Below, in pieces: positions 13,399-57,645 of a stretch of DNA of 64,000 nt; the first letter of the stretch is position 1; each line of letters begins with the position of its first letter. A program made the position numbers and the translations under genes. The stretch comes from an uncultured Candidatus Woesearchaeota archaeon (GTDB lineage Archaea > Nanobdellota > Nanobdellia > Woesearchaeales > DSVV01), in contig OY970338.1 of assembly GCA_963717515.1 (NCBI GenBank), forward strand, positions 1,172,861 through 1,236,860, written 5' to 3'. The notes beneath the pieces were generated by a model that was given only the letters and a program-made list of their open reading frames with translations, was not told where the DNA came from and ran no database searches.

Positions 13399-13406
13399 TT
13401 AAAAAA

Positions 13407-13424
13407 GATAAATTTATATATATA
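13407..13424 (+). promoter_or_regulatory. Conserved array promoter motif GATAAATTTATATATATA for member F
   Basis: The ATG at 13442 is ~27 nt downstream of the TATA centre. Confidence 0.65.
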
Positions 13425-13441
13425 ATTTCTTAATTAAGTTT

Positions 13442-15505: not shown

Positions 15506-15704
15506 GAAGATAAATTTATATACTATAATCTCAATGTAATCCTATGAAAAGAGGATTGATGGTGATGGTCTGCTTGGTTTTTCTGGTTAGTTTTGTTAGT
15601 GCGACGAATCATTATGTCTCTCCTTCTGGTTCTGCTTCGTGGTCCTTATGTACAAATATAAACACTCCTTGTTCATTATCAACTGCAAATTCAAATGCTG
15701 TTGC
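14789..15704 (+). repeat. Junction repeat R2, copy b: 916 bp, 100% identical to 6301-7216
   Basis: See copy a. This copy spans the 3' end of gene F, the promoter and the 5' end of gene G. Confidence 0.95.
15509..15523 (+). promoter_or_regulatory. Conserved array promoter motif for member G, identical to 7021-7035
   Basis: It lies inside repeat R2 copy b. Confidence 0.65.
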
Positions 15705-17991
15705 AGATGATGTTGTTTATCTTAGAGGGGATTCGTACACTGGAAGTGCTTTGCAACCAGCCCATTCCGGTTCATCTGGCCATCCGATTACTTATAAAAA
15801 TTATCCAGAAGAGACAGCAATATTCAGCGGTATGAATAATGGTATTAATCTTGCAAACAGAAGTTATATTACAATCGACGGCACAGACTCAAACTTTGGG
15901 ATACGGATACAGAATACTCATAATACTTGGATTGCCCTGTCAAGTTCGAGTCATATTATAATTCAACATTGTTATATGCGGAATAATAGAGGTTGGGCTG
16001 GTATTTCTGCAACAGGGTCTAATAGTTATATCCAAGTTCTAAATAATAATATGGCGAATGATGGTAAAAATGATTTCAATGATATAGTTTATTTCAGAGA
16101 TTCTGCTAATTACAATGTGTTTGAAGGAAATTATTTTGGTGATGCTGGACATACCGCATTGAATATTCATGGCTATGCAACAGCCCCCATCTTCAATGTT
16201 GTCAGGAATAATGTTTTTGAAAATACAAAACATGGTGGCCTTGGGATTTGGCCCAGTGGATCAGATCCATATTATGTTCTGTTTGAAGGGAATATCATTA
16301 AAAATGGAGGTACGGATAAGTTGAATGCCGCTCCTCCATCAAATACCAGCCAATCCCATGCTGTACAGGTTGGAGCAACTTATATAATTGGCAGAAAAAA
16401 TATATTGTATGGCAATAAGCCTGCTCCTGATGATAATTCTGGATATATGGTTATAGCTTTAACATTTGCTACATATGATGATGGTAAACCCAAGAATTGG
16501 TATAGCTCTTATTATCATAATACTTTTTATGATAATGAATATCCGATATTTGTTCGTGACAATCTATTACAAATGAAAGATAACGTCATTAAAAATAATA
16601 TTATCTATAAAAACGAGCATGATATATATTCTTGGCCGCGGTTAATTCCTGGCGTAGAATATATAAATAATTCAGGTAACAGCATAGATCCCCATTTCGT
16701 TAATATAGGGGGGGGTGATGATTTTACGCTTCAGTCAGATTCGGCCATGATAGACGCGGGCGGGTGGTTGACATTTATAACCTCAGCAACAGGTTCTGGT
16801 AAAACATCTTTTACAGTCGATCGTTCATTATACTTCTATGATGGGTGGGGTATACCTGGTGAAACCGGAGATGTAATAAAAACCCAGAACGGGCAGACAA
16901 CAACAATCCAGTCAATAAATTATGATACAAATATGATCACAGTATCCCCTGCAATAAACATTGTCAATGGTGAAGGTCTTTCATTAGATTATTCAGGCTC
17001 AGCACCAGACATTGGAGCATTTGAATATGCTTCAACTCCAACTTACTCCTGCACTGGCACAATACCTTCAAACGCAGCAGCATGGGATAGTGAAGAAAGT
17101 GAAAATCTGGGAGCGGACACTCCATGGACTTATTCAAGCTCAGATACTTCAATAAAATGTCAGTACCATTGCAATAGCGGATATACCTGGAGTGGAAGTT
17201 CTTGTGTTTTGCAGCAGCAAACATACTCCTACACAATCCTAAAGACTAATTTACCACCAACTATCGACGGAATTTTAAACGAATTCGCAAATGCAAATTC
17301 ATTAACAATAACCAATTCAAATGGAAATTCTGCAACTTACAAAATGCTTTGGGACAGCAATAGTTTGTATATTGCAGCCCAGGGAACCGATGACCAGCTT
17401 GCGGCTATTGTAAATATAAAAGACCAGACAGGAATCTGGGATGATGATTCAATTGAACTTTTCTTTGACACACTAAACAACGGAGGAAAATCATCAAATT
17501 CAGATGATTACAAGTTCTTTGTGAATCTTCTAAACACTTCTTATGATTTTTATAATGGTGGGGGAGGGGTTTCGTGGAATACTGCTTTAAGCTCTAAAAC
17601 TACAACTTCAGGAACATTAAATGTTGCAGGCAATGTTGATGCAGGCTACACAATTGAGGTTGCGATTCCATGGAAAGACTGGGTTGCACCTTCGGATAAT
17701 TCTGTGTGGGGCTTTGATGTTAACATGAATGACAGAAGAGACAACGGTACAAGAATCTGGGAAGCGTGGTCTGAGACAAGCGGGCTTAATATTCCTAATG
17801 AGTTTGGGGATGTCACTTTCTCGTCGCAGTTTGTTTCTTCTGGAAGCGTCTGCAAATCTCTCGCAGACTCTAACAGCGACGGAGTTATCTCGATATCTGA
17901 ATTAATCAATTATATCTCCCAATGGAAAACAGGAAGCGTTACAATCGAAAATCTGATTGACGCAATCGAGAAATGGAAATCAGGATGCTAG
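15544..17991 (+). CDS. Array member G. Secreted beta-helix protein with a Cys-containing linker, a CBM9-like domain and the double-WKSG tail; its ends are mosaic.
   Basis: The first 161 nt are identical to gene D. The next 18 nt (agatgatgttgtttatct) are identical to gene C. The core is unique. At the 3' end, 53 nt identical to C/F switch to 135 nt identical to gene B. DFTLQSDSAMIDAG and a CBM9-like region are present. Tail is at 17851-17988. Confidence 0.9.
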   Translation: MKRGLMVMVCLVFLVSFVSATNHYVSPSGSASWSLCTNINTPCSLSTANSNAVADDVVYLRGDSYTGSALQPAHSGSSGHPITYKNYPEETAIFSGMNNGINLANRSYITIDGTDSNFGIRIQNTHNTWIALSSSSHIIIQHCYMRNNRGWAGISATGSNSYIQVLNNNMANDGKNDFNDIVYFRDSANYNVFEGNYFGDAGHTALNIHGYATAPIFNVVRNNVFENTKHGGLGIWPSGSDPYYVLFEGNIIKNGGTDKLNAAPPSNTSQSHAVQVGATYIIGRKNILYGNKPAPDDNSGYMVIALTFATYDDGKPKNWYSSYYHNTFYDNEYPIFVRDNLLQMKDNVIKNNIIYKNEHDIYSWPRLIPGVEYINNSGNSIDPHFVNIGGGDDFTLQSDSAMIDAGGWLTFITSATGSGKTSFTVDRSLYFYDGWGIPGETGDVIKTQNGQTTTIQSINYDTNMITVSPAINIVNGEGLSLDYSGSAPDIGAFEYASTPTYSCTGTIPSNAAAWDSEESENLGADTPWTYSSSDTSIKCQYHCNSGYTWSGSSCVLQQQTYSYTILKTNLPPTIDGILNEFANANSLTITNSNGNSATYKMLWDSNSLYIAAQGTDDQLAAIVNIKDQTGIWDDDSIELFFDTLNNGGKSSNSDDYKFFVNLLNTSYDFYNGGGGVSWNTALSSKTTTSGTLNVAGNVDAGYTIEVAIPWKDWVAPSDNSVWGFDVNMNDRRDNGTRIWEAWSETSGLNIPNEFGDVTFSSQFVSSGSVCKSLADSNSDGVISISELINYISQWKTGSVTIENLIDAIEKWKSGC

Positions 17992-18178
17992 ATAAATTTA
18001 TATATGCAATTCCTATGTAATCCTAAGTAAAATGAAAAGGGGATTGATGGTGATGGTCTGTTTGGTTTTTTTTGTTAGCTTTGTCAGTGCCACTAATTAT
18101 TATGTTTCACCTGCGGGTTCTGCATCGTGGGCTTCATGCACAAATATCAATACTCCTTGTTCATTATCAACTGCAAAT
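17857..18178 (+). repeat. Junction repeat R1, copy b: 322 bp, 100% identical to 4272-4593
   Basis: See copy a. This copy spans the 3' end of gene G, the promoter and the 5' end of gene H. Confidence 0.95.
17991..18005 (+). promoter_or_regulatory. Conserved array promoter motif for member H, identical to 4406-4420
   Basis: It lies inside repeat R1 copy b. Confidence 0.65.
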
Positions 18179-20623
18179 ACAAATGCTGTTGCAGAGGATG
18201 TTGTTTATTTCAGGACGGGGACTTATACAACTTCACTCAATCCTGCACATTCAGGAGTTTCAGGAAATCCAATTACATTTGCAGCTTACAATGGAGAAAA
18301 TGCATACCTTGAAAACGGTAATTATGCCATAGACCTGAGGAATGGCCAGGATTATCTTATTATTGACGGGTTCAAATCAGATAATGCAAAACAATATGAA
18401 TTGTTTGCGCAAAACTCAACACACGTGGAACTTAAAAACTGCCATTTTAGTGTTAATATGCCAGGTGCAACAGCTTGGTTTTCTGTGGATATTGATGCAG
18501 GATGCAGTTACTGGAGTATTCATAATAATAAATTTGATGTTATACAAAGGCCAACTGGTCTTTTGAATGAAAGTGGAGGGTCACTCTTGGGAATTGGAGG
18601 CTCGGCAAATCCAGCACATCATAATTATATTTACAATAATATATTTATTGATGGCATGAACCATGACTTTTTTGCACTTTCTTACTCTGATTATAATGTA
18701 GTTGAAAATAATACTTTCTATAATACTGGAACATGGGTTTGCACTTCTGATCCTGGAACATGTGCTGTTGGCCCAGGAGAGACCATGCAGATAGAAAAAG
18801 GCGCGGACCATAATGTTATTGAAAATAATGTTTATCATGAGACATCAAGAAATTTTGGTGATAGTCATATGGTGGGGATTCATCAACTTAATTCAAAATA
18901 TAATATTTATAGAGGAAATATCGGATATGATTATGATGGGTGGGGAATTGATATTTATACAGGGCCTAATTATGGATATGCTGATACGGACTACAACCGC
19001 ATATATAGCAACACTTATTACAATATGATGTCGTCCACTTATTATTCAAATGATGGGCATGGGGTTATACGACTTTATGACTATCAATCTAATCAATATT
19101 TAAAACATACAAAGGTTGTTAATAATGTAGTCTCAACATCGGGCAAGAGAGCTTTTGAGGCAAATGAGATTTATTCTGGAATGCTTCTTCCGTATAGCAA
19201 TGAGTTCTTTGGAAACTGGCTTTATTATATAGCACAATCAACTGAAGTTAGAAGATATACGCCAAATGATTCAACACAATATTATACAATCTCACAAGCC
19301 CAGACAAATTTTCCATCGGAATTCCACGACAACAGCCCTAATGACCTCATAGACCCAAAACTAACAAACCCTGCAAGCGGCGACATGAGGCTGCAGTCAA
19401 GTTCTCCATGTATCGACGCTGGGCAGTGGCTAACAACAATAACCTCAGCAACAGGTTCAGGTACAAGCTTTGTTGTTGCAGACCCGTATTTCTTCTTTGA
19501 TGGTTATGGAATATCTGGGGTTTCAGGAGACACAATAAAAACTCAAAATGGACAGAAAACAACAATCCAGTCAATCAACTACAACACAAAAACAATTACA
19601 GTTTCTCCTGCAATAAACATTGTCAACGGAGAAGGATTGTCACTGGACTATTCAGGAAGCAAGCCAGATATCGGGGCAATCGAGTATACTGCAACAGGAA
19701 CCTGTAATGAAAACTGGCAGTGCACTTCCTGGAGCGCGTGGTCTTTATGTGTTAATAATCTGCAGACAAGAACAAGGACATGCACTGACCTGAAAAGCTG
19801 CGGGACAACAACTAACAAGCCTTCTGAATCAGAAACTCAATCATGCTCACCTTCTGCAAAATCCTACACAATCCTGAAAACTCAAAATCCAATAACTGTC
19901 GACGGCAATCTAAATGAATTCGCAAATACAAACCCGATAACAATAACAAACTCAAACGGGAACTCATTGATATACAAAATGCTCTGGGACAGCAATAATC
20001 TATACATTGCTGCGCAAGGAAGCGACAGCCAGCTTGCGGCAGTTTTAAACACAAGAGACGGAAGTGTGTGGAATGATGATGCAATTGAATTGTTCTTCGA
20101 CACATTAAATAACGGAGGAACAACGCTCCAGAGTGATGATTATAAGTTCTTTGTTAATCTTCTTAATGTTCAGAGAGATAACAGTGTTGGCGATGGAGGA
20201 GTTTCATGGAACACTGTATTCACTTCAGCTGTAACAACAACAGGAACATTGAATGTTGCGGGAGACACAGACACTGGCTATACGATTGAAGCTGCAATTC
20301 CATGGGCAGGCTGGGTTACACCTTCGGATAATAGTGTATGGGGTTTTGATGTATCAATGGATGACAGGAATGACGCAGGAAGCACAATTCAGAAAACAAG
20401 GTCGCAGACAAACGTTGGCAATATCCCTGATGAGTTTGGAGATGTTGTGTTTTCTTCGCAGTATGTCGTTTCAGGTTCAGAATGCAACTCTGATGCTGAT
20501 TCAGACGGAGATTCAAATATTTCAATAGGAGAACTGATCAATTACATCTCAAGATGGAAATCCAGAAATGTCTCAATCCTCAAGCTGGTCGAGGCAATTG
20601 ACAACTGGAAAAACGGCTGTTGA
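18032..20623 (+). CDS. Array member H. Secreted beta-helix protein with a TSP1-like module, a CBM9-like domain and a diverged double-WKSG tail.
   Basis: The signal peptide and N-terminus are identical to gene C. DMRLQSSSPCIDAG is present. The TSP1-like module CNENWQCTSWSAWSLC..RTRTC is at nt 19703-19846. A CBM9-like region follows. The tail at 20483-20620 ends NWKNGC. Confidence 0.9.
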   Translation: MKRGLMVMVCLVFFVSFVSATNYYVSPAGSASWASCTNINTPCSLSTANTNAVAEDVVYFRTGTYTTSLNPAHSGVSGNPITFAAYNGENAYLENGNYAIDLRNGQDYLIIDGFKSDNAKQYELFAQNSTHVELKNCHFSVNMPGATAWFSVDIDAGCSYWSIHNNKFDVIQRPTGLLNESGGSLLGIGGSANPAHHNYIYNNIFIDGMNHDFFALSYSDYNVVENNTFYNTGTWVCTSDPGTCAVGPGETMQIEKGADHNVIENNVYHETSRNFGDSHMVGIHQLNSKYNIYRGNIGYDYDGWGIDIYTGPNYGYADTDYNRIYSNTYYNMMSSTYYSNDGHGVIRLYDYQSNQYLKHTKVVNNVVSTSGKRAFEANEIYSGMLLPYSNEFFGNWLYYIAQSTEVRRYTPNDSTQYYTISQAQTNFPSEFHDNSPNDLIDPKLTNPASGDMRLQSSSPCIDAGQWLTTITSATGSGTSFVVADPYFFFDGYGISGVSGDTIKTQNGQKTTIQSINYNTKTITVSPAINIVNGEGLSLDYSGSKPDIGAIEYTATGTCNENWQCTSWSAWSLCVNNLQTRTRTCTDLKSCGTTTNKPSESETQSCSPSAKSYTILKTQNPITVDGNLNEFANTNPITITNSNGNSLIYKMLWDSNNLYIAAQGSDSQLAAVLNTRDGSVWNDDAIELFFDTLNNGGTTLQSDDYKFFVNLLNVQRDNSVGDGGVSWNTVFTSAVTTTGTLNVAGDTDTGYTIEAAIPWAGWVTPSDNSVWGFDVSMDDRNDAGSTIQKTRSQTNVGNIPDEFGDVVFSSQYVVSGSECNSDADSDGDSNISIGELINYISRWKSRNVSILKLVEAIDNWKNGC

Positions 20624-45563: not shown

Positions 45564-46643
45564 ATGGCAGAAACAACAAGGGAAATATCACGCTATGTGA
45601 AGTACGGAGTAATAATCCCGACTACCCTCTGGGCTGCTGTCCAGCTCGGCAGGTTCGGCCTGTGCGCTGATTTCAATCCTAACTTTGCGCTTTTCCATAA
45701 TGAACCGGAAATCCATTCAACGCTGGATATTCAACCTCCTGCTTCAGGCCTGATTGCTGCACTTGAACAGGGATATGAGCTGCCCAGGAATAACCTGCAT
45801 GAAAACCCGGAATCCATCAATGAGGCAGGGCTTAGGAAGAACCTGTTCTCAGGCCAGAAGAGCCTGCAGCACGATTCCCTGAATGAAGTGAAAGATATCC
45901 TGTCAACCCGGAATAACCTGTACAGCAAAGTCGTCGGAAATAAGGAAATCCCAGTAAGGAACAAGGTGATGGAGCTTGAAGATACAATATCGGACCTGAC
46001 TCAGTATGATGATTATATCACAGAAGCATGCAAGGAATTCAATGTCGACAAAATGATGGCTTATGCTGTAATCAGGAGGGAATCCCAGTCAGACCCCAGG
46101 GCGATATCTGATACTGGAGCAGCCGGGCTCCTGCAGCTTACGACAGCAACGGCAAGGGAGCTGGGCCTGAGAGTGGATTCTGTTATTGATGAGCGGCTTG
46201 ATCCTGAAAAAGCCATCGACGCAGGTATAAGGTACCTTAAAAAACTCCAGGACATGTTCGGGAAGCAGCACCTTGTGCATATCGCATGGAACTATGGCAT
46301 GGGAAACACTATGAAGCTGAAAAAATACTGGGGCAATGTCGCGCAGCTCTATATGCATATCCCTGACAAGAGAAAAAGGGAAGAGGTGAAGATCCATGTA
46401 AAAAAGATCCTTGCCACAGAATACCTGCTTGCGAAAAAGGATGAATACAGGCTGAACATCGACAAAAAGCCCCTCTATTCTGAAAGGATCAGGAACACAA
46501 GCACCCATATTGTAAAAAAAGGCAACACACTCTATAGCATAGCAAATAAATACGGAATGAAAACAGATGAGCTGAAGAAGATAAATCCGAGAATAAAGAA
46601 ATTCAGCATGATAATGCCAGGGATGCAGATAAGGGTATACTGA
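45564..46643 (+). CDS. Membrane-anchored lytic transglycosylase (SLT domain) with a C-terminal LysM domain
   Basis: N-terminal TM YGVIIPTTLWAAVQLGRFGL; SLT signature MMAYAVIRRESQSDPRAISDTGAAGLLQLTTATA; LysM HIVKKGNTLYSIANKYGMKTDELKKINP...PGMQIRV. Confidence 0.8.
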   Translation: MAETTREISRYVKYGVIIPTTLWAAVQLGRFGLCADFNPNFALFHNEPEIHSTLDIQPPASGLIAALEQGYELPRNNLHENPESINEAGLRKNLFSGQKSLQHDSLNEVKDILSTRNNLYSKVVGNKEIPVRNKVMELEDTISDLTQYDDYITEACKEFNVDKMMAYAVIRRESQSDPRAISDTGAAGLLQLTTATARELGLRVDSVIDERLDPEKAIDAGIRYLKKLQDMFGKQHLVHIAWNYGMGNTMKLKKYWGNVAQLYMHIPDKRKREEVKIHVKKILATEYLLAKKDEYRLNIDKKPLYSERIRNTSTHIVKKGNTLYSIANKYGMKTDELKKINPRIKKFSMIMPGMQIRVY

Positions 46644-49115: not shown

Positions 49116-49928
49116 ATGATTGTGAAAGAAGAATTTTTGAGCAAGCTGAGGCGCTATTTTTCATTGAACCTGTATGAAGTAAAGATCTGGGCTGCTCTGC
49201 TGTCAAGAGGGGTTTCGACAGCAGGTGAGCTTTCTGATATCGCGAATGTCCCAAGGTCAAGGAGTTATGACGTCCTTGAAAGCCTGGAGAAGAAGGGTTT
49301 TGTTGTCATGAAACTGGGAAAGCCTATAAAATACCTGGCAGTCCCACCCCAGGAAGTCCTTGAGCGTGTCAAGAAGAACATGAAGCAGGAAGCCAAGGAG
49401 AAAGTCGCAAGGCTTGATGACCTCAAGAACACGGAGATACTCAATGAGCTCAATGCTCTTCATACACAGGGAGTGGAGCTGGTTGAGCCCACAGACCTTT
49501 CAGGATCGCTCAGGGGAAGGCACAACCTGTACAACCATCTCGAGCTTACGATAAGGAACGCTGAGGAATCAGTCACCATCATGACCACGACCCAGGGCTT
49601 CATGAGAAAGATCGAGGGGCTCAAGCCTGTCTTCGAGAAGATTAAGAAGAGGGGCGTGAAGATAAGGATTGCCGCTCCTATAACAAAAGAGGCCATGGCT
49701 GCAGTCAAGGACATCCAGGAAGTCGCCGAGGTCAGGAGCACTGAATCAAGGGCAAGGTTCACAGTCGTCGACGGAAAAGAGATAATATTCATGGTGATCG
49801 ACGATTCAGAGGTCCACCCGACATATGATATCGGGATATGGGTCAACACGCCGTTCTTTGCAAATGCCATGCAGGAGCTATTCGATCTTGCGTGGAAAGA
49901 GATGAAACCCATAGCAAAGAGCAAATAG
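49116..49928 (+). CDS. trmB: TrmB-family transcriptional regulator
   Basis: LNLYEVKIWAALLSRGVSTAGELSDIANVPRSRSYDVLESLEKKGFV (TrmB wHTH). A strong SD, aaaggagggg, lies 6 nt upstream. Confidence 0.85.
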   Translation: MIVKEEFLSKLRRYFSLNLYEVKIWAALLSRGVSTAGELSDIANVPRSRSYDVLESLEKKGFVVMKLGKPIKYLAVPPQEVLERVKKNMKQEAKEKVARLDDLKNTEILNELNALHTQGVELVEPTDLSGSLRGRHNLYNHLELTIRNAEESVTIMTTTQGFMRKIEGLKPVFEKIKKRGVKIRIAAPITKEAMAAVKDIQEVAEVRSTESRARFTVVDGKEIIFMVIDDSEVHPTYDIGIWVNTPFFANAMQELFDLAWKEMKPIAKSK

Positions 49929-50030: not shown

Positions 50031-50044
50031 AAAATTTATATATT
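50031..50044 (+). promoter_or_regulatory. TATA box of the DUF134/NifX-like cluster
   Basis: aaaatttatatatt lies ~30 nt upstream of the ATG at 50068. Confidence 0.6.
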
Positions 50045-50046
50045 AG

Positions 50047-50066
50047 TTATGCATTATAATGCATAA
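50047..50066. promoter_or_regulatory. Perfect 20-bp palindrome TTATGCATTATAATGCATAA (operator candidate)
   Basis: Self-complementarity was verified base by base. It lies between the TATA box and the start codon and overlaps the expected transcription start. Confidence 0.6.
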
Positions 50067-50067
50067 T

Positions 50068-50574
50068 ATGGTCAGACCGAGAAAGTTGAGGATGGTGAAT
50101 TTCGAGCCAGGCGTGACGTATTTCAAGCCAAGGGCAGTGCCTCTGAGGAAGCTAGCTGAAATAGAATTGGCAATAGATGAGCTGGAGGCGATGAGGCTCT
50201 CAGACATGGAAAGGCTAAGCCAGGCCGAGGCAGCTGAAAAGATGGAGATACACCAGTCCACTTTCCAGAGGACGCTTGCGAGAGCGAGGGAGAAGGTGGC
50301 TGATGCTCTCGTGAACGGCAAGGCCATAAAGATCAGAGGAGGTGAGTACAAGATGCCAGGAGGAGACGGAACAGGGCCGATGGGAGCAGGGCCCGGCAGA
50401 GGTTTTGGCAGAGGAGCAGGAGCCGGAAGAGGCAGGATGGGCGGACCTCTCTCAGCAGGGCCCGGAGGGGATTGCGTATGCCCTAAATGTGGCCATCACA
50501 TGGTGCATGCAAGAGGGCAGCCGTGCAACCAGACAAGGTGTCCTAAATGCAGCACCATGATGACCAGAGGATAA
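50068..50574 (+). CDS. DUF134 (predicted DNA-binding) protein fused to a DUF5320-like G-rich segment and a zinc ribbon
   Basis: RPRKLRMVNFEPGVTYFKPRAVPLR...LSQAEAAEKMEIHQSTFQRTLARAREKVADALVNGKAIKI is the DUF134 pattern. It is followed by GGDGTGPMGAGPGRGFGRGAG and CVCPKCGH...CPKC. An alternative ATG lies at 50059. Confidence 0.8.
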   Translation: MVRPRKLRMVNFEPGVTYFKPRAVPLRKLAEIELAIDELEAMRLSDMERLSQAEAAEKMEIHQSTFQRTLARAREKVADALVNGKAIKIRGGEYKMPGGDGTGPMGAGPGRGFGRGAGAGRGRMGGPLSAGPGGDCVCPKCGHHMVHARGQPCNQTRCPKCSTMMTRG

Positions 50575-50585
50575 GGAGGAACAGG

Positions 50586-51383
50586 ATGAAGATAGCAATA
50601 ACAGCAGAAGATGTCACATTGGAGAGCAGAGTCGATCCGAAATTCGGCAGATGCAGGTATTTCCTGATAGCAGATATAGAAAACGAAGGGCTTACCCACG
50701 AAGGGCTATCCCAAGCAGTGAAAAATGAAGGGGCTATCCAGGGGCATGGCGCTGGGATTAAGGCAGCGAAACAATTAGGCGAGCTTGGTGTCAAGGCTGT
50801 ATTGACAGGGGAAGTCGGGCCGAATGCAGCAGATGTACTTGAACAGCTTGGAATCAAGGCGTACCATGCCTCAGGGACTGCTAAAGAATCTGTCGAGAAA
50901 TTCAGGAACAATGAGCTCAAAGCCATAGCTGGGCAAATTGAGCCAAGGACAGACGATGTATCAAGGCAAATAAAAGAGGACAGGAGCGAGATGCCAGGGC
51001 ATGCAAATGAAGAGAGGATATTTTTCCCTTTGCTTGATGACAATGGCATGGATTCGAGGATATCGCCGCATTTCGGGCATGCACCATTTTTCGGCCTGTT
51101 CGACACAAAGACAGGAGGGTTTACGATAACAGGCAACACATTGAGCCATGATGACCCGGACAAGTCGCCGGTTGACCAGATTGTCGAGTCAGTGAACCCT
51201 ACAACTGTCTTTGCACAAGGTATAGGTGCAAGGGCGAAGATGCTTTTCAGCGAGAAGGGCATATCAATAAAGACAGGCCTGTTTGAGAATGTAAGGGATG
51301 CTGTTGACAACCTGGACAAGCTGGCTGAGCAGAAATCGGACTGCGGCCACGCGCATCATCACGGACACAGGAACAGGAGGTAG
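50586..51383 (+). CDS. Tandem NifB/NifX-like (Nitro_FeMo-Co family) domain protein with a His-rich C-terminus
   Basis: Two copies of the family signature are present (MKIAITAED..SRVDPKFGRCRYFLIAD and ..DSRISPHFGHAPFFGLFD). The tail reads CGHAHHHGHRNRR. SD aaggagg lies upstream of the ATG at 50586. Confidence 0.8.
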   Translation: MKIAITAEDVTLESRVDPKFGRCRYFLIADIENEGLTHEGLSQAVKNEGAIQGHGAGIKAAKQLGELGVKAVLTGEVGPNAADVLEQLGIKAYHASGTAKESVEKFRNNELKAIAGQIEPRTDDVSRQIKEDRSEMPGHANEERIFFPLLDDNGMDSRISPHFGHAPFFGLFDTKTGGFTITGNTLSHDDPDKSPVDQIVESVNPTTVFAQGIGARAKMLFSEKGISIKTGLFENVRDAVDNLDKLAEQKSDCGHAHHHGHRNRR

Positions 51384-51396
51384 AAAAGTGGAAGAC

Positions 51397-51726
51397 ATGA
51401 AAGATGTATTAGGAGAGGTACAGCACAGCCTGGAGAATCTGGGAAAAGAGTATCCCGGATTCATGAATGCATTCGGAGGCTTCATGGGCGAGGTCGAGAA
51501 GGAAGGGGCTCTTGACAGGAAGACAAAGGAGCTCATATCCGTGGCGCTGAGCATCGTCGCACACTGCAGATGGTGCATCGCATACCATGTAAAAGGAGCC
51601 CTCGATGCAGGTGCGACAAAAGACCAGGTGATGGAATCGTGCTTCGTCGCATCACTCATGGGAGGCGGGCCTGCACTGATGTATACGCAGCTTGCTGTCA
51701 AGGCTCTTGAGGACCTTTCATCCTGA
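51397..51726 (+). CDS. AhpD-like / carboxymuconolactone decarboxylase family protein (CxxC)
   Basis: LDRKTKELISVALSIVAHCRWCIAYHVKGALDAGATKDQVMES. An alternative GTG start at 51388 lies 7 nt after a GGAGG. Confidence 0.8.
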   Translation: MKDVLGEVQHSLENLGKEYPGFMNAFGGFMGEVEKEGALDRKTKELISVALSIVAHCRWCIAYHVKGALDAGATKDQVMESCFVASLMGGGPALMYTQLAVKALEDLSS

Positions 51727-51792
51727 ACATATTTTTTGTTATTTTATTTCTGAAACTTTTGAATTGTTTTGATCATTTCTGGGTTGCTGAAA

Positions 51793-52635
51793 ATGAGGAT
51801 AATCGGAATAACAGGGGGCAAGGGAGGAACAGGAAAATCGACAGTAGCTACTGCGCTTGCAATTGAGCTTGGAAAAAAACATAAGGTGCTTCTGGTCGAT
51901 GCTGATGTCGATTGCCCGAACGACCATCTGCTGTTAAGCATTATAAGGCAACCCTTTAACACGGTCGAACAGAGGATACCTGAGTGGGACCTGAAAAAAT
52001 GTACGAGGTGTGGGCTCTGTGGAACTGTCTGTATGACAAATGCGATTGTATCCATCAAGGGCAGGACTCCGATATTTTTGAAAGCCCAGTGCAATGGCTG
52101 CGGTGCATGTGCCATAAAATGCCCTGTCAAGGCCATAAGCTGGGGCAAGAAGGAGATTGGAAGAATATTCTCAGGCAATGGCCACGGAGTAGATCTCATT
52201 TCAGGCGAGCTTAAATCAAATGAGCCTGTATCAGAGTTTGTGGTGAATTCATTGAACAGGACAATCAAGAAAAAAAGAGCAGGATATGATTACATCATCA
52301 TCGACACCGCAGCTGGGACGCACTGCCCGGTGATTGCAGCACTCGAGATGTGCGATGTTGTCTACCCAGTGACCGAGCCTACGCCGCTTGGCGCCCATGA
52401 CCTGGGGTTGATATTGAGGCTCCTCAATAGGCTGGACGTCAAGTCAAATGTGATATTGAACAGGTCTGATATAGGAGATAAAATATCAATAGCATCCCTT
52501 GTCCGGGAACATGGCCTGGACATCATTGCAGAGATCCCTTATTCAAGAGAGATAATGGAACATTATTCTTCAGGCCAGCCAATCGAGATTCCCGGCATCT
52601 CAAGGATAATAGAGGATATAAATAATGAAAGATAG
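51793..52635 (+). CDS. MinD/ParA-type P-loop ATPase with an inserted 2x[4Fe-4S] ferredoxin domain
   Basis: GGKGGTGKST deviant Walker A, CTRCGLCGTVC, and CNGCGACAIKCP. Confidence 0.85.
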   Translation: MRIIGITGGKGGTGKSTVATALAIELGKKHKVLLVDADVDCPNDHLLLSIIRQPFNTVEQRIPEWDLKKCTRCGLCGTVCMTNAIVSIKGRTPIFLKAQCNGCGACAIKCPVKAISWGKKEIGRIFSGNGHGVDLISGELKSNEPVSEFVVNSLNRTIKKKRAGYDYIIIDTAAGTHCPVIAALEMCDVVYPVTEPTPLGAHDLGLILRLLNRLDVKSNVILNRSDIGDKISIASLVREHGLDIIAEIPYSREIMEHYSSGQPIEIPGISRIIEDINNER

Positions 52636-53866
52636 GCTGAAAAAGGGGCAGAGGACAGCAGGGTTTGCGACAATTGCGACAATAATCCTGTCATTGGCAA
52701 AAGGGATTGCAGGCCTTCTCTCAGGAAGCATACTGCTAATAGCAGATGCAGTCCACAGCGGTGTAGACATCATAGCGATATTTGCATCATGGTTCGGGCT
52801 CAGGATTTCGCAGAGGCAGCCAAACAAGAAATTCCCATATGGGTATTACAAGGCAGAGAACCTGGCAACTTTAGTTGTTGTGGGCTTCATATTTCTTGCA
52901 GCCTATGAGATATTTATAGGGAGCTATAGAAAGCTCTTTACAGTGACTGAGCTCAGGCATCCGGCAATCGCCCTGGCAGTCCCGATATTCTCCAGTGCAG
53001 TGTCATATGCAATCGCACACTATGAGCACAAGGTCGGCCAGGAGATAGGGTCGCAGAGCCTCATTGCAAATGCCCAGGAGTCAAAGGCTGATGTCCTGTC
53101 ATCTCTTGTCGTATTTGCCGGTGTCCTGCTCTCATATTTCCATATCAGATATGTCGAGGGGATAATCGGGGTGCTTTTGTCTTTGCTGATAGTGAAGATA
53201 GGCTTTCAGAACGCCATATCAGCTGTACTTTCGCTCATGGATGCAAGCCCAGACCAGGAGCTTGAGAAAAAGATCGAGAAACTGGTCCTGAAGACTCCGG
53301 GAGCAAGAGAGGTGAGCCATATCAGGCTCAGGCAATCAGGACTGTTCGTGTTCGGCGAGGCCAATATCCTTGTCAGCAGGAGCCTGGACGTGAACAGGGC
53401 GCATGAGATATCTGAGAAGATTGAGGCGGAGATAAAGAAGAATTTTCCAAAGATTGAGTCATTCCTGATACACATAGAGCCTCATATGGGGCAAATTCAG
53501 AAAGTACTGGTCCCGATAAAGAACAAAGACGGCCTGGATTCGATTATCGTGGGCCATTTCGGCAGGGCGGATTATTTCATGTATGTCGTGATGAGGGATG
53601 GGAAGATCGAGTCCTGGAGCATCAAGGAGAACCCGCATGTAAAAAAGGATGTTAGGGCAGGGCTTTCTGCTGCAAAAGAGGTGTTGTCTGAAAACATTGA
53701 TGCGATTGTGCTCCAGAGGATTGGAGAGATAGCATTCCATGCGTTGAGAGACGGCTATGTCGACATATACAGGACTGATGGAAAAACAGCGAAACAGGTT
53801 ATTGACAACCTTATGAACAAGAAACTTGACAGGCTGGACAAGCCTACGCATTCAAGCGAAAAATGA
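52625..53866 (+). CDS. Cation diffusion facilitator (CDF) transporter fused to a C-terminal NifX-like domain
   Basis: The CDF TM core (LLIADAVHSGVDII, ..AHYEHK.., SKADVLSS) and cytoplasmic domain are followed, from about nt 53501, by KVLVPIKNKDGLDSIIVGHFGRADYFMYVV, the NifX-family signature. Confidence 0.8.
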   Translation: MKDRLKKGQRTAGFATIATIILSLAKGIAGLLSGSILLIADAVHSGVDIIAIFASWFGLRISQRQPNKKFPYGYYKAENLATLVVVGFIFLAAYEIFIGSYRKLFTVTELRHPAIALAVPIFSSAVSYAIAHYEHKVGQEIGSQSLIANAQESKADVLSSLVVFAGVLLSYFHIRYVEGIIGVLLSLLIVKIGFQNAISAVLSLMDASPDQELEKKIEKLVLKTPGAREVSHIRLRQSGLFVFGEANILVSRSLDVNRAHEISEKIEAEIKKNFPKIESFLIHIEPHMGQIQKVLVPIKNKDGLDSIIVGHFGRADYFMYVVMRDGKIESWSIKENPHVKKDVRAGLSAAKEVLSENIDAIVLQRIGEIAFHALRDGYVDIYRTDGKTAKQVIDNLMNKKLDRLDKPTHSSEK

Positions 53867-53916
53867 TCCAGATAGAAGGTTGCAGGAAAGATAATTGAAG
53901 ACAAGGGGATTTGAAG

Positions 53917-54792
53917 ATGAGGACAATAACGATACTTTCAGGCAAAGGAGGGGTAGGAAAGAGCAGCATCACTGCGTCACTGGCAGTGGTTTTGTCAAGA
54001 AAACAAAAGATAATCTGCGCAGACTGCGATGTCGACGCCTCGAACCTTGCATTGGTCTTTGGAATAAGGGAAAAGGACTACGTGGAATGGGAATCATTAT
54101 CAACAAACAAAAAAGCAGAATTTGACCTTGAAAAATGCAATTCATGTGGAAAATGCCATGAAAACTGCTATTTTGATGCTATAGAGTTTGAAGATGATAA
54201 GCCGAGGCTGAAAGAGTTCAGCTGTGAAGGGTGCGGTGTCTGCGAACTGGTATGTCCGGCAGATGCAGTAAGCATGGTTGACATAGACAATGCAAAAATC
54301 GGCTATGCCGACACCAGATATGGTTTTAGTGTAGTTTCAGCGCAGCTTGATATAGGGGGCTCCGGCTCAGGAAAGGTCGTAAGCGAGGTCAAGAAAAAAG
54401 CAAGGGCCCTTGCAGGCGATACAGAAATCATGCTGGTCGACTCTGCAGCAGGAATAGGGTGCCCTGTCATCGCATCTGTTGCAGGAAGCGACCATGCCAT
54501 TGTAGTTGCAGAGCCCACCCCGTCAGGGTTCTCTGACATGAAGAGGGCCATAGAGGTCGTCTCGCAATTCAGGATACCTTATAGCATAATCATCAATAAA
54601 TTCGACCTCAGCACGGAGTTCACTAGGGAAATCGATGATTTTGCCATGGATAAATCAGCAGAAGTCATTTTGAAGATACCTTATGACATTGCGTTTGCAC
54701 AGGCCCTGGTAAAAATGGTGCCGATAGTCGAGCATGATACGCGTTTTGAAATATTTTTTAATGCATTAGCTGATGGATTGGCATTACAATAA
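53917..54792 (+). CDS. MinD/ParA-type P-loop ATPase with an inserted 2x[4Fe-4S] ferredoxin domain (second paralog)
   Basis: SGKGGVGKSS, CNSCGKCHENC and CEGCGVCELVCP. The ATG at 53917 is preferred over the TTG at 53911. Confidence 0.85.
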   Translation: MRTITILSGKGGVGKSSITASLAVVLSRKQKIICADCDVDASNLALVFGIREKDYVEWESLSTNKKAEFDLEKCNSCGKCHENCYFDAIEFEDDKPRLKEFSCEGCGVCELVCPADAVSMVDIDNAKIGYADTRYGFSVVSAQLDIGGSGSGKVVSEVKKKARALAGDTEIMLVDSAAGIGCPVIASVAGSDHAIVVAEPTPSGFSDMKRAIEVVSQFRIPYSIIINKFDLSTEFTREIDDFAMDKSAEVILKIPYDIAFAQALVKMVPIVEHDTRFEIFFNALADGLALQ

Positions 54793-56362: not shown

Positions 56363-57022
56363 ATGGAAACAATCGACATGATTACATCGTTTTTCAAGTC
56401 ACCGACAAAATTTTTCAGCACCGTGAAGGGAGACAAGGGATACAAGAAACCGTGGATGTATTATCTTGCGATTACAGCAGTCTATTATGCGGTGACTTAC
56501 ATATTCCAGATCCCTTCGATATTTATCGGCGGAGCTATCTCCGGAGGGACATCCAGCCTGATTTCACCATCCCTGAATCTAGTGCTGATGCTTGTAATAT
56601 ACATATTCATATTTGCATTATCTCTTGGCCTGGTATTTGTGTCTGCAGCCATAATGCACCTGTTCCTGATGATTGTGGGCACCAAGAAGAGATATCAAGA
56701 GACATTCAAGCTCGTATGCTATGCTTCAACACCATTGCTCATCATTGCGCCCTTCAATCTGCTCAGCATTATACCAATAATAGGGCCTTTGATTTTGCTG
56801 ATGGTCATATTTGCTGTGGCAGTTTATGTGATGGTGATAGAGGTAATCGGCGCGAAAGTCCTCCATGATATCTCCACTGCAAGGGCTGTCGTGGGCGTTG
56901 TAGTCATTCCGCTGGTGCTGGCCCTGATAATATTTTTAATCGTTGCGGCGATGCTGATAGGATTGATAATGGCAGTCTCTAAATCAGGAGGTCTTACAGG
57001 GCTTGTGACAGGCTCGCTTTGA
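56363..57022 (+). CDS. Multi-pass membrane protein, Yip1-domain-like (tentative)
   Basis: About five predicted TM helices follow a short soluble N-terminus. The arrangement is typical of prokaryotic YIP1/DUF1282 proteins. Confidence 0.5.
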   Translation: METIDMITSFFKSPTKFFSTVKGDKGYKKPWMYYLAITAVYYAVTYIFQIPSIFIGGAISGGTSSLISPSLNLVLMLVIYIFIFALSLGLVFVSAAIMHLFLMIVGTKKRYQETFKLVCYASTPLLIIAPFNLLSIIPIIGPLILLMVIFAVAVYVMVIEVIGAKVLHDISTARAVVGVVVIPLVLALIIFLIVAAMLIGLIMAVSKSGGLTGLVTGSL

Positions 57023-57645
57023 GGATCAATATGGACAGCACAGTAAAAAAGGCGATGGAGAACCTTGAGAAAGGGAATATCAAGTGCCATTTTGCCAAAG
57101 ACAGGCAGGAAGCTAGAAATATTGTGATGTCCATGATAAATAAGGGTGATGTGATTGGTTATGGCGGCTCATCGACTCTTGATGAATGCGGGATCCGGGA
57201 TGAGCTGAGAAAAAAAGGCTACAATCTCCTTGACTGGCAGAAAGATGGGACAACGCCTGAGGACAAGAAGAAGATTCTTGAACAGACAATGACATGCGAC
57301 GTGTTCCTGTCAGGGTCGAATGCTGTCACGATGGATGGCAAGCTCTATAATGTGGATGGCAGGGGAAACAGGGTATCAGCATTGACATTCGGTCCGAAGA
57401 AGGTGATTGTGGTTGCAGGAAAGAACAAGCTGGTCAGGAACCTGCTTGAGGCAAGGGAGAGAGTGGATACGATTGCAGGACCTTTGAATGCAAGGCGCCT
57501 TGACAGGAAGACCGGATGCATCGCAGCAGGATTCTGTGTGGACTGCGACTCTCCTGAAAGGATTTGCAGGCATTACATGGTGACTGACAGGCAGTATCCT
57601 GGAAGGATGAGCGTAATCATTGTCAATGAGAATCTGGGATTTTAA
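57019..57645 (+). CDS. LUD-domain (lactate-utilisation LutB/C-like, DUF162) protein
   Basis: GYGGSSTL, VFLSGSNAVTMDGKLYNVDGRGNRVSAL.FGP.KVIVVAGKNK and ..C..CDSPERIC. Confidence 0.65.
   Translation: MRINMDSTVKKAMENLEKGNIKCHFAKDRQEARNIVMSMINKGDVIGYGGSSTLDECGIRDELRKKGYNLLDWQKDGTTPEDKKKILEQTMTCDVFLSGSNAVTMDGKLYNVDGRGNRVSALTFGPKKVIVVAGKNKLVRNLLEARERVDTIAGPLNARRLDRKTGCIAAGFCVDCDSPERICRHYMVTDRQYPGRMSVIIVNENLGF

Follow-up and report, generated by a model that had tools for sequence, protein, structure and literature searches.

A conserved archaeal gene cluster joining a CDF::NifX transporter to MinD-ferredoxin ATPases, most likely for iron and sulfide management in anaerobic cells

Introduction

A cluster of six genes (g1–g6) in a 64-kb window of DNA from an uncultured archaeon, the window being the whole stretch that was analyzed, is a widely conserved, barely studied kit, most likely for managing iron and sulfide in the absence of oxygen. 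More specifically, we see about an even chance that it represents, in an archaeal form, the ORP/IssA-type machinery specific to anaerobes that handles iron sulfide or Fe-S, driven by ATP and electrons and tied to Fe(II) efflux.

Two known systems resemble parts of the cluster. The ORP complex of Desulfovibrio (Orp3/4/5/8/9) contains two MinD-ferredoxin ATPases together with NifX-like proteins (PMC6345978); expression of the orp genes is restricted to low redox potential, and the function of ORP is described as “still unclear”. IssA/SipA is the thioferrate iron-sulfur storage protein of Thermococcales; MTH1175 has been assigned to the IssA clade, and the cationic, Gly/Arg-rich tail chemistry of IssA type has been proposed to bind anionic thioferrate (PMC5524996). 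IssA/SipA and paired “CobQ with Fe-S domain” genes are induced by S0 or sulfide, IssA homologues are up-regulated in M. voltae on FeS2, and the role of IssA is disputed between storage and detoxification. In the cluster, the parts are joined to a FieF/MamB-like cation exporter.

Results

Organization and conservation of the cluster

All six open reading frames (ORFs) are present on the + strand of the window (Table 1), with likely start codons at internal positions in several of the listed ORFs. Pfam and NCBIfam searches back each domain named in an earlier sequence-only reading, which was correct in describing six co-directional genes with this parts list and in finding no nitrogenase genes nearby; none occur within the 64-kb window. 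The tight packing that it described is not uniform: the spacings from g1 to g6 are 11, 13, 66, −11 and 50 nt, the negative value being an 11-nt overlap of g5 with g4. The AT-rich g3–g4 spacer is possibly an archaeal terminator or an internal promoter. It is 92% identical in locus L001, which is too close for this to be informative, and no copy of the candidate operator described below was found in it.

Table 1. Features of the cluster and its promoter region
Feature	Position	Strand	Remarks
TATA-like box TTTATATA of the cluster promoter	50035..50042	+	read from sequence
Candidate DUF134 operator, perfect 20-bp palindrome TTATGCATTATAATGCATAA	50047..50066	.	overlaps expected transcription start
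16-bp palindrome core ATGCATTATAATGCAT	50049-50064	.	between TATA box and g1 start codon
g1, DUF134 HTH regulator, then Gly/Arg-rich DUF5320-like segment (MPGGDGTGPMG...GRGFGRG...), then Cys6-His ribbon	50068..50574	+	alternative start 50059
g2, two fused NifX-like domains, NifXa and NifXb	50586..51383	+	PF02579 x2
g3, AhpD/CMD-family CxxC protein (HCRWC)	51397..51726	+	alternative GTG start 51388
AT-rich spacer, 66 nt, oligo-T runs	51727..51792	+	g3–g4 gap, between g1–g3 and g4–g6; read from sequence
g4, class-4 MinD-type ATPase, inserted 2x[4Fe-4S] ferredoxin domain	51793..52635	+	Pfam/NCBIfam
g5, CDF transporter, 6 TM, cytoplasmic dimerization domain, C-terminal NifX/IssA-like domain	52625..53866	+	PF01545 (Cation_efflux), PF16916 (ZT_dimer), PF02579
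g6, class-6 MinD-type ATPase, inserted 2x[4Fe-4S] ferredoxin domain	53917..54792	+	Pfam/NCBIfam

Relatives of g5 are encoded in 229 species genomes, from which 80 loci carrying the CDF::NifX fusion were sampled, comprising DPANN, other anaerobic archaea, and bacteria with sigma70-type promoters. Most of these loci share a core of five of the six genes around the fusion, an arrangement far beyond chance, and the gene order of one locus (L081) is that of the window. Where flanking DNA was sufficient (41 loci), at least two MinD-Fer4 genes are found in 32, a stand-alone NifX gene in 31, DUF134 in 27, and the Gly-rich Cys6 module in 33. The gene neighborhoods therefore bear out, for five of the six genes, the co-conservation on which the sequence-only reading depended. 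Its view that the combination recurs in anaerobic archaea and bacteria likewise stands, although partly characterized relatives (the ORP complex and IssA/SipA) qualify its statement that no function has been assigned. In 15 of the 80 loci, CDF::NifX has no ATPase, NifX or DUF134 genes nearby, which implies that the transporter can function alone or that its partners are encoded elsewhere.

The sixth gene, g3, matches PF02627 (77 bits) and the AhpD core domain model TIGR00778. It had been read as a conserved member of the cluster, but L001, the closest relative of the window, is the one locus of the 80 that carries it; thioredoxin or Trx-fold membrane proteins hold comparable positions in other loci. 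It is a lineage-specific accessory thiol-redox gene outside the conserved core.

The DUF134 regulator and its candidate operator

The g1 protein scores 95.3 bits against PF02001 (DUF134; cut-off 27), and its residues 37–79 form a Sigma70_r4_2-like HTH. Of the two further parts attributed to it, the zinc ribbon is a Cys-rich ribbon with six Cys and one His (C-x-C-x2/4-C-x5-H-x5-C-x4-C-x2-C), kept in 51 sequences, whereas the match of the tail to DUF5320 falls below threshold (19.6 versus 27 bits). Bona fide DUF5320 genes are present in clusters of the same type in other genomes, and 49 of the 80 loci have either a fusion of DUF134 with the tail or a separate tail gene (“t”). The Gly/Arg-rich tail of IssA type that occurs in the window is located on this regulator.

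The palindrome ahead of g1 occurs once in the 64-kb window with three mismatches allowed, versus 0 expected. L001, L002 and L010 retain it, and also the TATA-like box, while their remaining intergenic DNA diverges; the layout of box followed by palindrome recurs in many related loci. Perfect ATG-N10-CAT palindromes number 15 in 971 kb of related loci, versus 0.23 in shuffles (~60-fold enrichment); they lie upstream of DUF134, “t” or DUF5320 genes, and palindromes of related loci are positioned 3' of a TATA box or −10 element. Half-site and DUF134 recognition helix vary together (HQ/CAT, SR/AAC, SQ/AAT), perfectly so in 26 loci. DUF134 is thus very likely the cluster’s own repressor, predicted to act at this palindrome, which gives the “dedicated regulator” of the sequence-only reading a concrete candidate operator. 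The window has a single operator copy, ahead of g1, from which g4–g6 may or may not be controlled.

NifX-like domains

The two domains of g2 are of different types. NifXa (KFGR) is of the MTH1175/ORP/IssA type, with PDB matches to MTH1175 (5.6e-17) and to D. gigas ORP (2WFB, 1.2e-12), whereas NifXb (HFGHA) is of the TM1816/MrpORP Di-Nase type, with PDB matches to TM1816/TM1290/PH0822. Residues 152–248 match the NCBIfam MrpORP Di-Nase model, HFGH and a terminal C-x-H being common to both. A C-terminal CGH precedes the His-rich tail (the protein ends in CGHAHHHGH), and an SCGH terminus is kept in NifXb proteins at other loci. MTH1175 is the top solved relative not only of NifXa but also of the NifX domain of g5 (2.7e-11).

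The likeness to IssA extends to Gly/Arg-rich tails, which are carried by NifX homologues, roughly one in four transporters, and g1. Such tails are present in 48 of 61 NifXa homologues (median 34.5% Gly and 20% Arg/Lys, no acidic residues, pI 12), and R/G/W-rich C-terminal tails in ~30 of the top 120 CDF::NifX homologues. The window’s own NifX domains have no cationic tails, which counts against the iron-sulfide reading.

Since ORP was isolated with a Mo-Cu cluster, [S2MoS2CuS2MoS2], the homology of NifXa to D. gigas ORP could also suggest the handling of Mo/W-Cu thiometallates. We regard this as the least likely of the readings considered, because the NifX domains are nearer to MTH1175/IssA than to ORP, no recurring Mo/W transport or cofactor genes were found in the 80 neighborhoods, and the ATPase fusion partner described below is an Fe-S scaffold. 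CDFs, moreover, carry divalent cations, not thiometallate anions.

The MinD-ferredoxin ATPases

Both g4 and g6 are CbiA/MinD proteins with a deviant Walker A motif and eight ferredoxin cysteines apiece. They share 30% identity. Each has additional conserved cysteines, C41 (DxDxDCPN) and C178 (DxAAGxxCPV) in g4, with conservation measured over 118 homologues, and C37 and C182 in g6. Paired MinD-ferredoxin paralogues occur in 56 of the 80 loci, and the pair fits the published description of Orp3/Orp4 as two paralogous 2x[4Fe-4S] ATPases. Among close homologues of g4, four (62–65% identity) have an N-terminal NifU_N/IscU scaffold domain, scoring 80–84 bits in two of the three scanned and 34 in the third. 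One of these fusions belongs to a syntenic cluster, in which a thioredoxin takes the place of AhpD.

Membership of the MinD/ParA superfamily could instead point to positioning or cell division, with the metalloproteins as redox-sensitive regulators. The initial proposal for the ORP complex was of this kind; orpR mutants of D. vulgaris are morphologically defective, MrpORP is polar, and the C-terminal segments of the ATPases are amphipathic, albeit as judged by hydrophobic moment without a control. Such a role appears very unlikely, as the ATPases score 57–75 bits against a MinD equivalog cut-off of >200, division genes do not recur in the 80 neighborhoods, and a role of this sort would leave unexplained why the ATPases are tightly linked to a metal transporter, NifX carriers and a NifU scaffold.

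The CDF::NifX transporter

Homologues of g5 fall into 624 clusters, with the fusion present in 119 of the best 120 listed. Its closest solved relative is FieF/YiiP, a ferrous-iron efflux pump, to which the transport site aligns (H44, D48, E149, D153) with ligating residues at 4/4 positions. Because the Glu at the TM5 position is unusual (H-D/E-D), metal specificity is not readable from sequence. NCBIfam models rank MamB > MamM > MntE > FieF > Zn-CDFs. By these likenesses, g5 is most likely a FieF/MamB-like cation exporter with Fe(II) as its presumed cargo. The sequence-only reading left the choice open between Fe, Zn, Mo, W and Ni; the CDF ranking, the resemblance to FieF, the cationic tails and the NifU_N fusion favor iron or iron sulfide.

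Alternatively, the CDF could rid the cell of a toxic thiophilic cation (Zn, Co, Ni or Cd), the NifX-like and Cys/His-rich modules being metallochaperones or sensors and the Fe-S ATPases maturation or regulatory partners. The His-rich end of g2 with its conserved CGH, the likeness of the Cys6-His ribbon to zinc ribbons, and the presence of ZIP transporters in 7 of the 80 loci and of a metal-type ABC ATPase in 8 are consistent with this, as is the ability of ORP to hold S2MoS2-M-S2MoS2 in vitro (M = Fe, Co, Ni, Cu or Cd, according to a cited reference). Detoxification of this kind is nevertheless unlikely, given that Fe/Mn-type models give g5 far higher scores than ZitB or DmeF do and that IssA-type tails and the NifU_N fusion indicate iron sulfide. 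Zn-CDFs are typified by a His-rich cytoplasmic loop, and none was seen on reading the g5 sequence.

Transport could also run inward, with CDF::NifX importing Fe(II) or aqueous FeS, or receiving it at the membrane, and passing it via the IssA-like domain and the NifX carriers to the (NifU-fused) ATPases, which would use it to assemble Fe-S clusters. Methanogens have been postulated to possess an “unknown transporter” of FeS(aq) (PMC8516115). The cluster consists mostly of Fe-S assembly and carrier-type parts, the NifU_N fusion included, and it puts a cluster-binding domain, which in some homologues has a tail of IssA type, right where the transporter opens to the cytoplasm. We nonetheless consider uptake quite unlikely, somewhat behind Zn/Co/Ni/Cd export, as the CDFs matched by g5 work as efflux pumps or in magnetosomes (FieF/YiiP, MamB/M, MntE, ZnT8) and its transport-site and cytoplasmic-domain residues resemble those of ordinary exporters. 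To our knowledge, cation movement by every characterized CDF is directed out of the cytoplasm, which also counts against uptake.

Discussion

The general idea of ATP-driven metal or metallocluster handling, already put forward from the sequence, fits both the parts list and the conserved cluster. For the iron-sulfide reading that we prefer, we propose the following model. NifXa, NifXb and the C-terminal domain of g5, which have no classical cysteine motifs for the purpose, would bind Fe-S clusters or iron-sulfide material in the manner of IssA, ORP and the MrpORP Di-Nase domain. Secondly, g4 and g6 would act as an Orp3/Orp4-like heterodimeric ATPase. Electrons would come from its ferredoxin domains and possibly from an inter-subunit cluster bound by the extra cysteines, while ATP-driven conformational work would load, mobilize or pass on the iron-sulfide material. 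Thirdly, the NifX/IssA-like domain of g5 may serve as a docking or sensing site, with iron outside the Fe-S form being exported. The g3 protein would contribute thiol/persulfide redox chemistry, a task that thioredoxins would perform in relatives. Finally, g1 would bind the palindrome over the transcription start and so repress the promoter; the Gly/Arg-rich, Cys6-His tail of g1 probably senses the same iron-sulfide species. Of this picture, the domains, the cluster’s conservation, the candidate operator and its co-variation with g1, the homologies and the domain fusions are computational findings, while the ligand’s chemical nature, Fe(II) as cargo, the transport direction, the heterodimer and the sensed signal are inferred.

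New in this work are the predicted link between DUF134 and its operator, the Gly/Arg-rich tails of IssA type, and, in a syntenic relative, the fusion of NifU/IscU to the first ATPase with thioredoxin replacing AhpD. For cells living in Fe(II)- and sulfide-rich anoxic habitats, g5 would provide a safety valve.

Gene layout and genomic surroundings

The cluster comprises six genes, g1–g6, separated in that order by 11, 13, 66, −11 and 50 nt (coordinates and domains are listed in the table below). All of the domains named in the sequence-only reading were recovered with Pfam and NCBIfam. The 66-nt g3–g4 spacer, which is AT-rich and contains oligo-T runs, could divide the cluster into two transcription units. 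Antisense ORFs were taken to be shadow ORFs of the coding strand and were discarded.

The cluster is flanked by ordinary archaeal housekeeping genes, which encode ADP-forming acetyl-CoA synthetase, PheRS alpha and beta, SecY, L15, H+-PPase, carbamoyl-phosphate synthase and a TrmB-like regulator. A TATA box of its own precedes pheS and, together with the PheRS alpha equivalog score of 519 bits, the TATA-type promoters identify the source as archaeal. No nif genes were found among the scanned ORFs of the window, in agreement with the earlier remark that nitrogenase genes are not nearby, and Rfam and tRNA scans of the whole window gave zero matches. The TrmB-like regulator gene lies directly 5' of the cluster only in the window and in L001, the closest related locus, and is outside the conserved core. 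Elsewhere in the window, pheS and pheT stand apart, with genes for a membrane protein with a Yip1 domain and for a LUD-domain protein between them, and a protein with SLT lytic-transglycosylase and LysM domains, that is, with peptidoglycan-directed activity, is encoded amid otherwise archaeal genes. Eight tandem ORFs of 687–883 aa occupy a region whose GC content (0.33–0.41) is below that of the remainder of the window; the two that were compared are paralogous (48% identity), and two that were scanned each have a CBM9-like domain at the C-terminus, one of them together with a polysaccharide-lyase-like region.

Features of the window and of related loci (L, loci in other genomes, with positions within the locus)
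Feature	Position	Strand	Basis and content
g1	50068 (alternative start 50059)-50574	+	ORF and DNA reading; DUF134, sigma-70 region 4-like HTH
g2	50586-51383	+	ORF and DNA reading; PF02579 twice
g3	51397 (alternative GTG 51388)-51726	+	ORF and DNA reading; CMD/AhpD, HCRWC
g4	51793-52635	+	ORF and DNA reading; CbiA/MinD and two 4Fe-4S motifs
g5	52625-53866	+	ORF and DNA reading; Cation_efflux, ZT_dimer and PF02579
g6	53917-54792	+	ORF and DNA reading; CbiA/MinD and two 4Fe-4S motifs
TATA-like box	50035-50042
Perfect palindrome	50047-50066		20 bp
TGAACATAT	51724-51740		contains g3 stop codon
Antisense ORF (example)	50543-51319	-	discarded
TrmB-like regulator gene	49116-49928
Yip1-domain and LUD-domain genes	56363-57645		between pheS and pheT
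SLT and LysM protein gene	45564-46643
Eight tandem ORFs	1869-20623	+
Paralogous tandem ORFs	4447-7017; 15544-17991	+	48% identity
Bona fide DUF5320, L042	478-845
Bona fide DUF5320, L050	3154-3676
Bona fide DUF5320, L059	1638-2067
Bona fide DUF5320, L040	8064-8381
Bona fide DUF5320, L081	2214-2465
Minimal module and transporter pair, L032	7678-9245
Trx-fold membrane protein, L052	6637-7758

Conservation of the cluster

The transporter gene g5, which encodes a cation-diffusion-facilitator (CDF) protein fused to a NifX-like domain (CDF::NifX), served as the anchor for comparison. Its relatives form 624 protein clusters at E <= 1e-10, and all three domains (Cation_efflux, ZT_dimer and PF02579) are present in 119 of the 120 best listed of these. 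Named records stem mostly from Aenigmat-, Woese-, Micr- and Iainarchaeota, Bathyarchaeia, Thermoplasmata/Methanomassiliicoccales and Patescibacteria, with many automatic titles that look unreliable. A pattern scan with one genome per species placed CDF::NifX relatives in 229 genomes. Neighbours were counted in 80 loci retrieved from these, by searching the window proteins against six-frame ORFs.

Neighbours of CDF::NifX genes in the retrieved loci
Neighbour	Loci with enough flank	All loci
Two or more MinD-ferredoxin (MinD-Fer4) ATPase genes	32/41	56/80
Stand-alone NifX gene	31/41	60/80
DUF134 gene	27/41	40/80
Gly-rich Cys6 module ('t')	33/41	49/80

L081, a contig found via a g4 homologue, carries genes for DUF5320, DUF134, a small ferredoxin, a thioredoxin, a double NifX protein, an ATPase, CDF::NifX and a second ATPase, in the exact order of the window. 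Because of the neighbour counts and this gene order, a lack of co-conservation, which the sequence-only reading had offered as grounds for rejecting the cluster, can be dismissed for five of the genes. The exception is g3. It is a genuine AhpD/CMD protein (PF02627, 77.4 bits vs 23; TIGR00778, 52.5 bits vs 27.8; HCRWC in the sequence), yet an AhpD-like gene recurs in just one of the 80 loci, the closest relative L001, and its assignment to the conserved core has to be given up. What varies is the thiol-redox partner, which is AhpD-like in the window and L001, a thioredoxin in L081 and eight other loci, and a Trx-fold membrane protein in 24 loci. The last of these is a protein of ~375 aa with an N-terminal thioredoxin-like fold, a polytopic membrane domain and conserved cysteines; by eye it is CcdA/DsbD-like, which Pfam does not confirm. 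Other recurrent neighbours in the 80 loci are an MBL-fold protein (14), a UDG-like protein (12) and a ZIP-like transporter named by eye (7). The cluster is, in sum, a real entity that had been well described.

At 15 of the 80 loci, the transporter gene has no ATPase, NifX or DUF134 gene near it, and about half of these, including six of the Thermoplasmata/Methanomassiliicoccales type, keep the 't' module immediately 5'. In the Methanomassiliicoccales-type L032, and likewise in L037, L053 and L077, this minimal pair lies directly 3' of a tRNA-Pro(TGG) gene; neither a DUF134 gene nor a palindrome was found near the minimal pairs of such loci.

NifX-like domains and their tails

The two domains of g2 belong to different subtypes, so that the protein is a NifXa::NifXb fusion. 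For domain 1 (residues 2–116), matches were obtained to MTH1175 (5.6e-17) and to the orange protein of D. gigas (2WFB, 1.2e-12); those of domain 2 are TM1816, TM1290 and PH0822 and, within the NCBIfam model for MrpORP, its Di-Nase region. MTH1175 is also the best match of the g5 NifX domain (approximately residues 295–413; 2.7e-11), and is the best solved relative of both. Handling of Mo/W–Cu thiometallates is highly improbable as the role of the cluster.

NifXa-type proteins carry Gly/Arg-rich tails in 48 of 61 cases (median 34.5% Gly, 20% Arg/Lys, no acidic residues, pI 12), and NifXb-type proteins have a conserved C-terminal SCGH. Of the 120 best CDF::NifX homologues, about 30 extend at the C-terminus into an extra tail rich in Arg, Gly and Trp, such as RRRGPWWGRW, whose chemistry is that of the IssA tail. 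The cationic Gly/Arg/aromatic tail is absent from both g2 and g5 of the window, where the Gly/Arg-rich segment has moved onto g1.

As for nitrogenase maturation, NifX, NafY and the C-terminal domain of NifB share the Pfam domain with the cluster, and also the idea of a small carrier that moves a metallocluster from an ATPase-dependent assembly site to its destination. The NifX equivalog model TIGR02663, however, scores 21.5 bits against a cut-off of 112, and the cluster is without nitrogenase, nifEN and nifB genes.

The paired ATPases

g4 and g6, which are 30% identical, each combine a CbiA/MinD P-loop domain bearing a deviant Walker A motif with eight ferredoxin cysteines. Two further cysteines are conserved across 118 sequences in two classes, namely C41 in DxDxDCPN and C178 in DxAAGxxCPV for the g4 class, and C37 and C182 for the g6 class. 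The second lies seven residues past the Walker B aspartate and, because the switch II cluster ligand of NifH presumably occupies the equivalent position, the extra cysteines suggest a possible cluster between the subunits of the ATPase pair. Four close g4 homologues (62–65% identity) carry an N-terminal NifU_N/IscU domain, scoring 80–84 bits in two of the three scanned and 34 bits in the third, and one of the four lies within the syntenic cluster of L081.

These properties resemble those of the SIMIBI metallocluster NTPases (Nbp35/Cfd1/ApbC/MrpORP, NifH and CooC), which likewise have a deviant Walker A motif with its signature lysine, cysteines conserved beside switches I and II, where they could hold a bridging cluster in the dimer, and a link to an Fe-S scaffold, here through the NifU_N fusion. 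They differ in that g4 and g6 have an inserted 2x[4Fe-4S] ferredoxin domain and no Mrp-type CxxC. A search of solved structures for a MinD-ferredoxin ATPase returned only MinD/FleN/ParA and separate ferredoxin domains. A positioning role like that of MinD itself is very unlikely. The MinD models TIGR01968 and TIGR01969 score 52–75 bits against cut-offs above 200, which amounts to superfamily membership only. Candidate C-terminal amphipathic helices of both proteins have hydrophobic moments compatible with membrane anchoring, as computed without a control.

The transporter

g5 is a CDF protein (PF01545, 156 bits; PF16916, 69 bits; TIGR01297, 231.8 bits vs a cut-off of 82). Its best NCBIfam matches are MamB (157.5 bits vs 350), MamM, MntE and FieF, ahead of the Zn, Co and Ni CDFs, with every model for FieF, MamB/M, MntE and ZitB under its cut-off, and its best solved relative is E. 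coli FieF/YiiP. With FieF/YiiP and MamB/MamM it shares the transmembrane domain and the cytoplasmic dimerisation domain, in which the histidines of FieF/YiiP are retained. The four residues of transport site A (TM2 and TM5) align as H44, D48, E149 and D153 of g5 with D45, D49, H153 and D157 of YiiP, giving an H-D/E-D site in place of D-D/H-D. Among 18 aligned homologues, D48 is invariant, the other three positions vary in some, and TM5 reads E-x3-D/H. Unlike these CDFs, g5 has the extra C-terminal NifX-like domain and a family-specific GEI[SA]FHxLRD motif. We found no paper that links a CDF transporter to a NifX domain.

Because of the model ranking and the alignment with FieF/YiiP, the matches favour Fe(II), or Mn, over Zn as the transported ion, though they are no proof. 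Detoxification of Zn, Co, Ni or Cd is unlikely. A transporter that takes up metal and hands it on, in place of efflux, is quite unlikely.

The regulator and its candidate operator

Membership of g1 in DUF134 is clear (PF02001, 95.3 bits vs a gathering threshold of 27, residues 1–99). The second half of the earlier description, a DUF5320-like tail, did not hold up to the same degree, as PF17253 scores 19.6 bits, under its cut-off of 27, with a match confined to the N-terminal 39 positions of the model. Genuine DUF5320 genes (61–107 bits) do occur in related clusters, often as the first gene 3' of the operator; their products begin with MPGGDGTGP, are rich in Gly, Arg and aromatic residues, end in a coiled coil, and look like free-standing IssA-type tails. 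The g1 tail itself is the 't' module, with the fixed spacing C-x-C-x2/4-C-x5-H-x5-C-x4-C-x2-C in 51 sequences, which is found free, joined to DUF134 as in the window, or joined to NifXa.

A perfect 20-bp palindrome lies between the TATA-like box and the g1 start. These two elements are all that the upstream DNA of the window shares with that of L001, L010 and L002, whose CDFs are 60–87% identical to g5. Perfect 16-bp ATG-N10-CAT palindromes occur 15 times in the 80 loci, compared with a dinucleotide-shuffle mean of 0.23 and maximum of 2, and lie 5' of genes for DUF134, 't' or bona fide DUF5320. In archaeal loci they are placed a few bases 3' of a TATA-like box; in L015, L016, L044, L059, L067 and L071 the palindrome, 5' of DUF134 or DUF5320, immediately follows the -10 element of a bacterial-type TTGACA-N17-TATAAT promoter, and the DUF134/operator pair therefore seems to function in both archaea and bacteria.

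Operator and recognition helix co-vary over 26 loci, whose sequences are non-independent: ATGCAT half-sites accompany helices starting I-H-Q-S-T, ATGAAC/GAACAT accompany S-R-x-T, and ATGAAT accompanies S-Q-x-T. Across these non-independent loci, Arg of the helix thus pairs with C:G and Gln with T:A, as direct base readout would predict. Owing to the position, conservation and enrichment of the palindrome and its co-variation with the recognition helix, DUF134 very likely represses its own operon by binding the palindrome; the signal that it senses we infer from the g1 tail. Desulfovibrio orp7 may encode a DUF134 protein as well. Almost no literature was found on DUF134 or DUF5320.

No second operator copy was detected in the window, in particular in the g3–g4 spacer, even with mismatches allowed. 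The g3 stop codon sits inside TGAACATAT, a half-site of the ATGAACATATGTTCAT operator type of other lineages. This is probably due to chance, since it does not fit the regulator of the window, which is of the ATGCAT/HQ type.

Relation to the ORP complex and IssA

The D. vulgaris ORP complex contains Orp3 and Orp4, with two [4Fe-4S] motifs each, the NifX-like Orp5 and Orp8, and Orp9/MrpORP, a Mrp/NBP35::Di-Nase fusion whose Di-Nase part binds [3Fe-4S] and has HFGH and terminal C-D-H motifs (PMC6345978). What it does is "still unclear", and its expression is restricted to low redox potential (PMC8359166). By that description of Orp3 and Orp4 (PMC6345978), g4 and g6 are an equivalent pair of paralogous P-loop ATPases with two ferredoxin motifs each. 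Both systems further have NifX-like domains, single-domain proteins in the ORP complex, of which one is homologous to the orange protein (g2 domain 1 here), as well as a domain of Di-Nase type that bears both HFGH and a terminal Cys-x-His; both systems are confined to anaerobes and clustered with a dedicated regulator. The differences are equally distinct. The cluster has no Mrp/NBP35-type gene (MrpORP model, 60.7 bits vs 450, in the Di-Nase region only), joins both NifX types in one protein, places a third NifX-like domain on a CDF membrane transporter, and adds an AhpD-like protein. Moreover, its genes are co-directional, with a DUF134 gene and a palindromic candidate operator predicted to act at an archaeal TATA-like promoter, whereas the ORP operons are divergent and depend on sigma54, OrpR and IHF.

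The second point of reference is IssA, the thioferrate iron-sulfur storage protein of P. furiosus, which has an IPR003731 domain and a cationic Gly/Arg/aromatic tail; MTH1175 is assigned to the IssA clade, and an uncharacterised "IssX" clade has Gly-rich tails (PMC5524996). Following this clade assignment, g2 domain 1 and the g5 C-terminus share the MTH1175-type IPR003731/PF02579 domain with IssA/SipA and IssX. Relatives of the window proteins also carry the disordered cationic tail, of a type proposed to wrap anionic thioferrate, in contrast to the tail-less NifX domains of the window with the Gly/Arg-rich segment on the regulator. SipA/IssA is induced by S0 and, in Thermococcales, co-induced with paired Fe-S ATPase genes; in Palaeococcus, S0 additionally induces another NifX-like gene along with a pair of genes for "CobQ with Fe-S domain". 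M. voltae growing on FeS2 up-regulates two IssA homologues, and A. fulgidus AF2378–AF2380 (NifX and CbiA) are highly expressed. Unlike IssA, CDF::NifX would be a membrane-anchored form, tailed in about a quarter of homologues and previously undescribed.

Discussion

Domain content, synteny, fusions, motif enrichment and co-variation are established computationally. The most economical reading, to which we give a roughly even chance, is that the cluster is an ORP/IssA-type module for handling iron sulfide or Fe-S clusters, equipped with a CDF exporter. The NifX domains would act as carriers served by an Orp3/4-like engine, driven by ATP and electrons, which domain fusion ties to an IscU-type scaffold; a thiol-redox helper and a dedicated repressor would be further parts, and the CDF exporter would dock onto the module via its own IssA-like domain. 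Within this scheme we infer the ligand, the ion, the direction of transport, the heterodimer and the signal. The earlier idea of an ATP-driven system for handling, delivering or detoxifying a metal or metallocluster was right in spirit, but the literature on ORP and IssA had escaped it, and it was mistaken in counting AhpD among the conserved parts. The kind of system is known but poorly understood; its new elements are the operator code of DUF134, the CDF::NifX arrangement and the IssA-type tails common to several parts.

More tentatively, CDF::NifX may be a membrane-anchored IssA, in which the transporter would trade iron directly with an iron-sulfide store bound to protein. Joined by the NifX carriers and by MinD-ferredoxin ATPases, sometimes fused to NifU, it could then form a self-contained Fe-S supply and buffering pathway common to DPANN, other anaerobic archaea and small-genome bacteria of the candidate-phyla type, and this may include a long-sought route for entry or hand-off of Fe(II)/FeS(aq). 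DUF134 would be an iron-sulfide-sensing repressor in both domains of life, with an operator code (HQ-CAT, SR-AAC, SQ-AAT) that is readable from sequence.

The function of the ORP complex has been "unclear" since 2011, IssA has been without known partners, and DUF134 and DUF5320 have essentially no literature. All of these meet in one conserved operon, alongside a metal transporter and, among relatives, a scaffold of the IscU type, so that several orphan families become a single testable iron-sulfide pathway. The predicted operator and recognition code offer a means of mapping regulons in thousands of uncultured genomes. The cluster is among the few multi-gene modules common to DPANN archaea and small-genome bacteria, organisms in which iron acquisition and buffering and the building of Fe-S clusters are poorly known.
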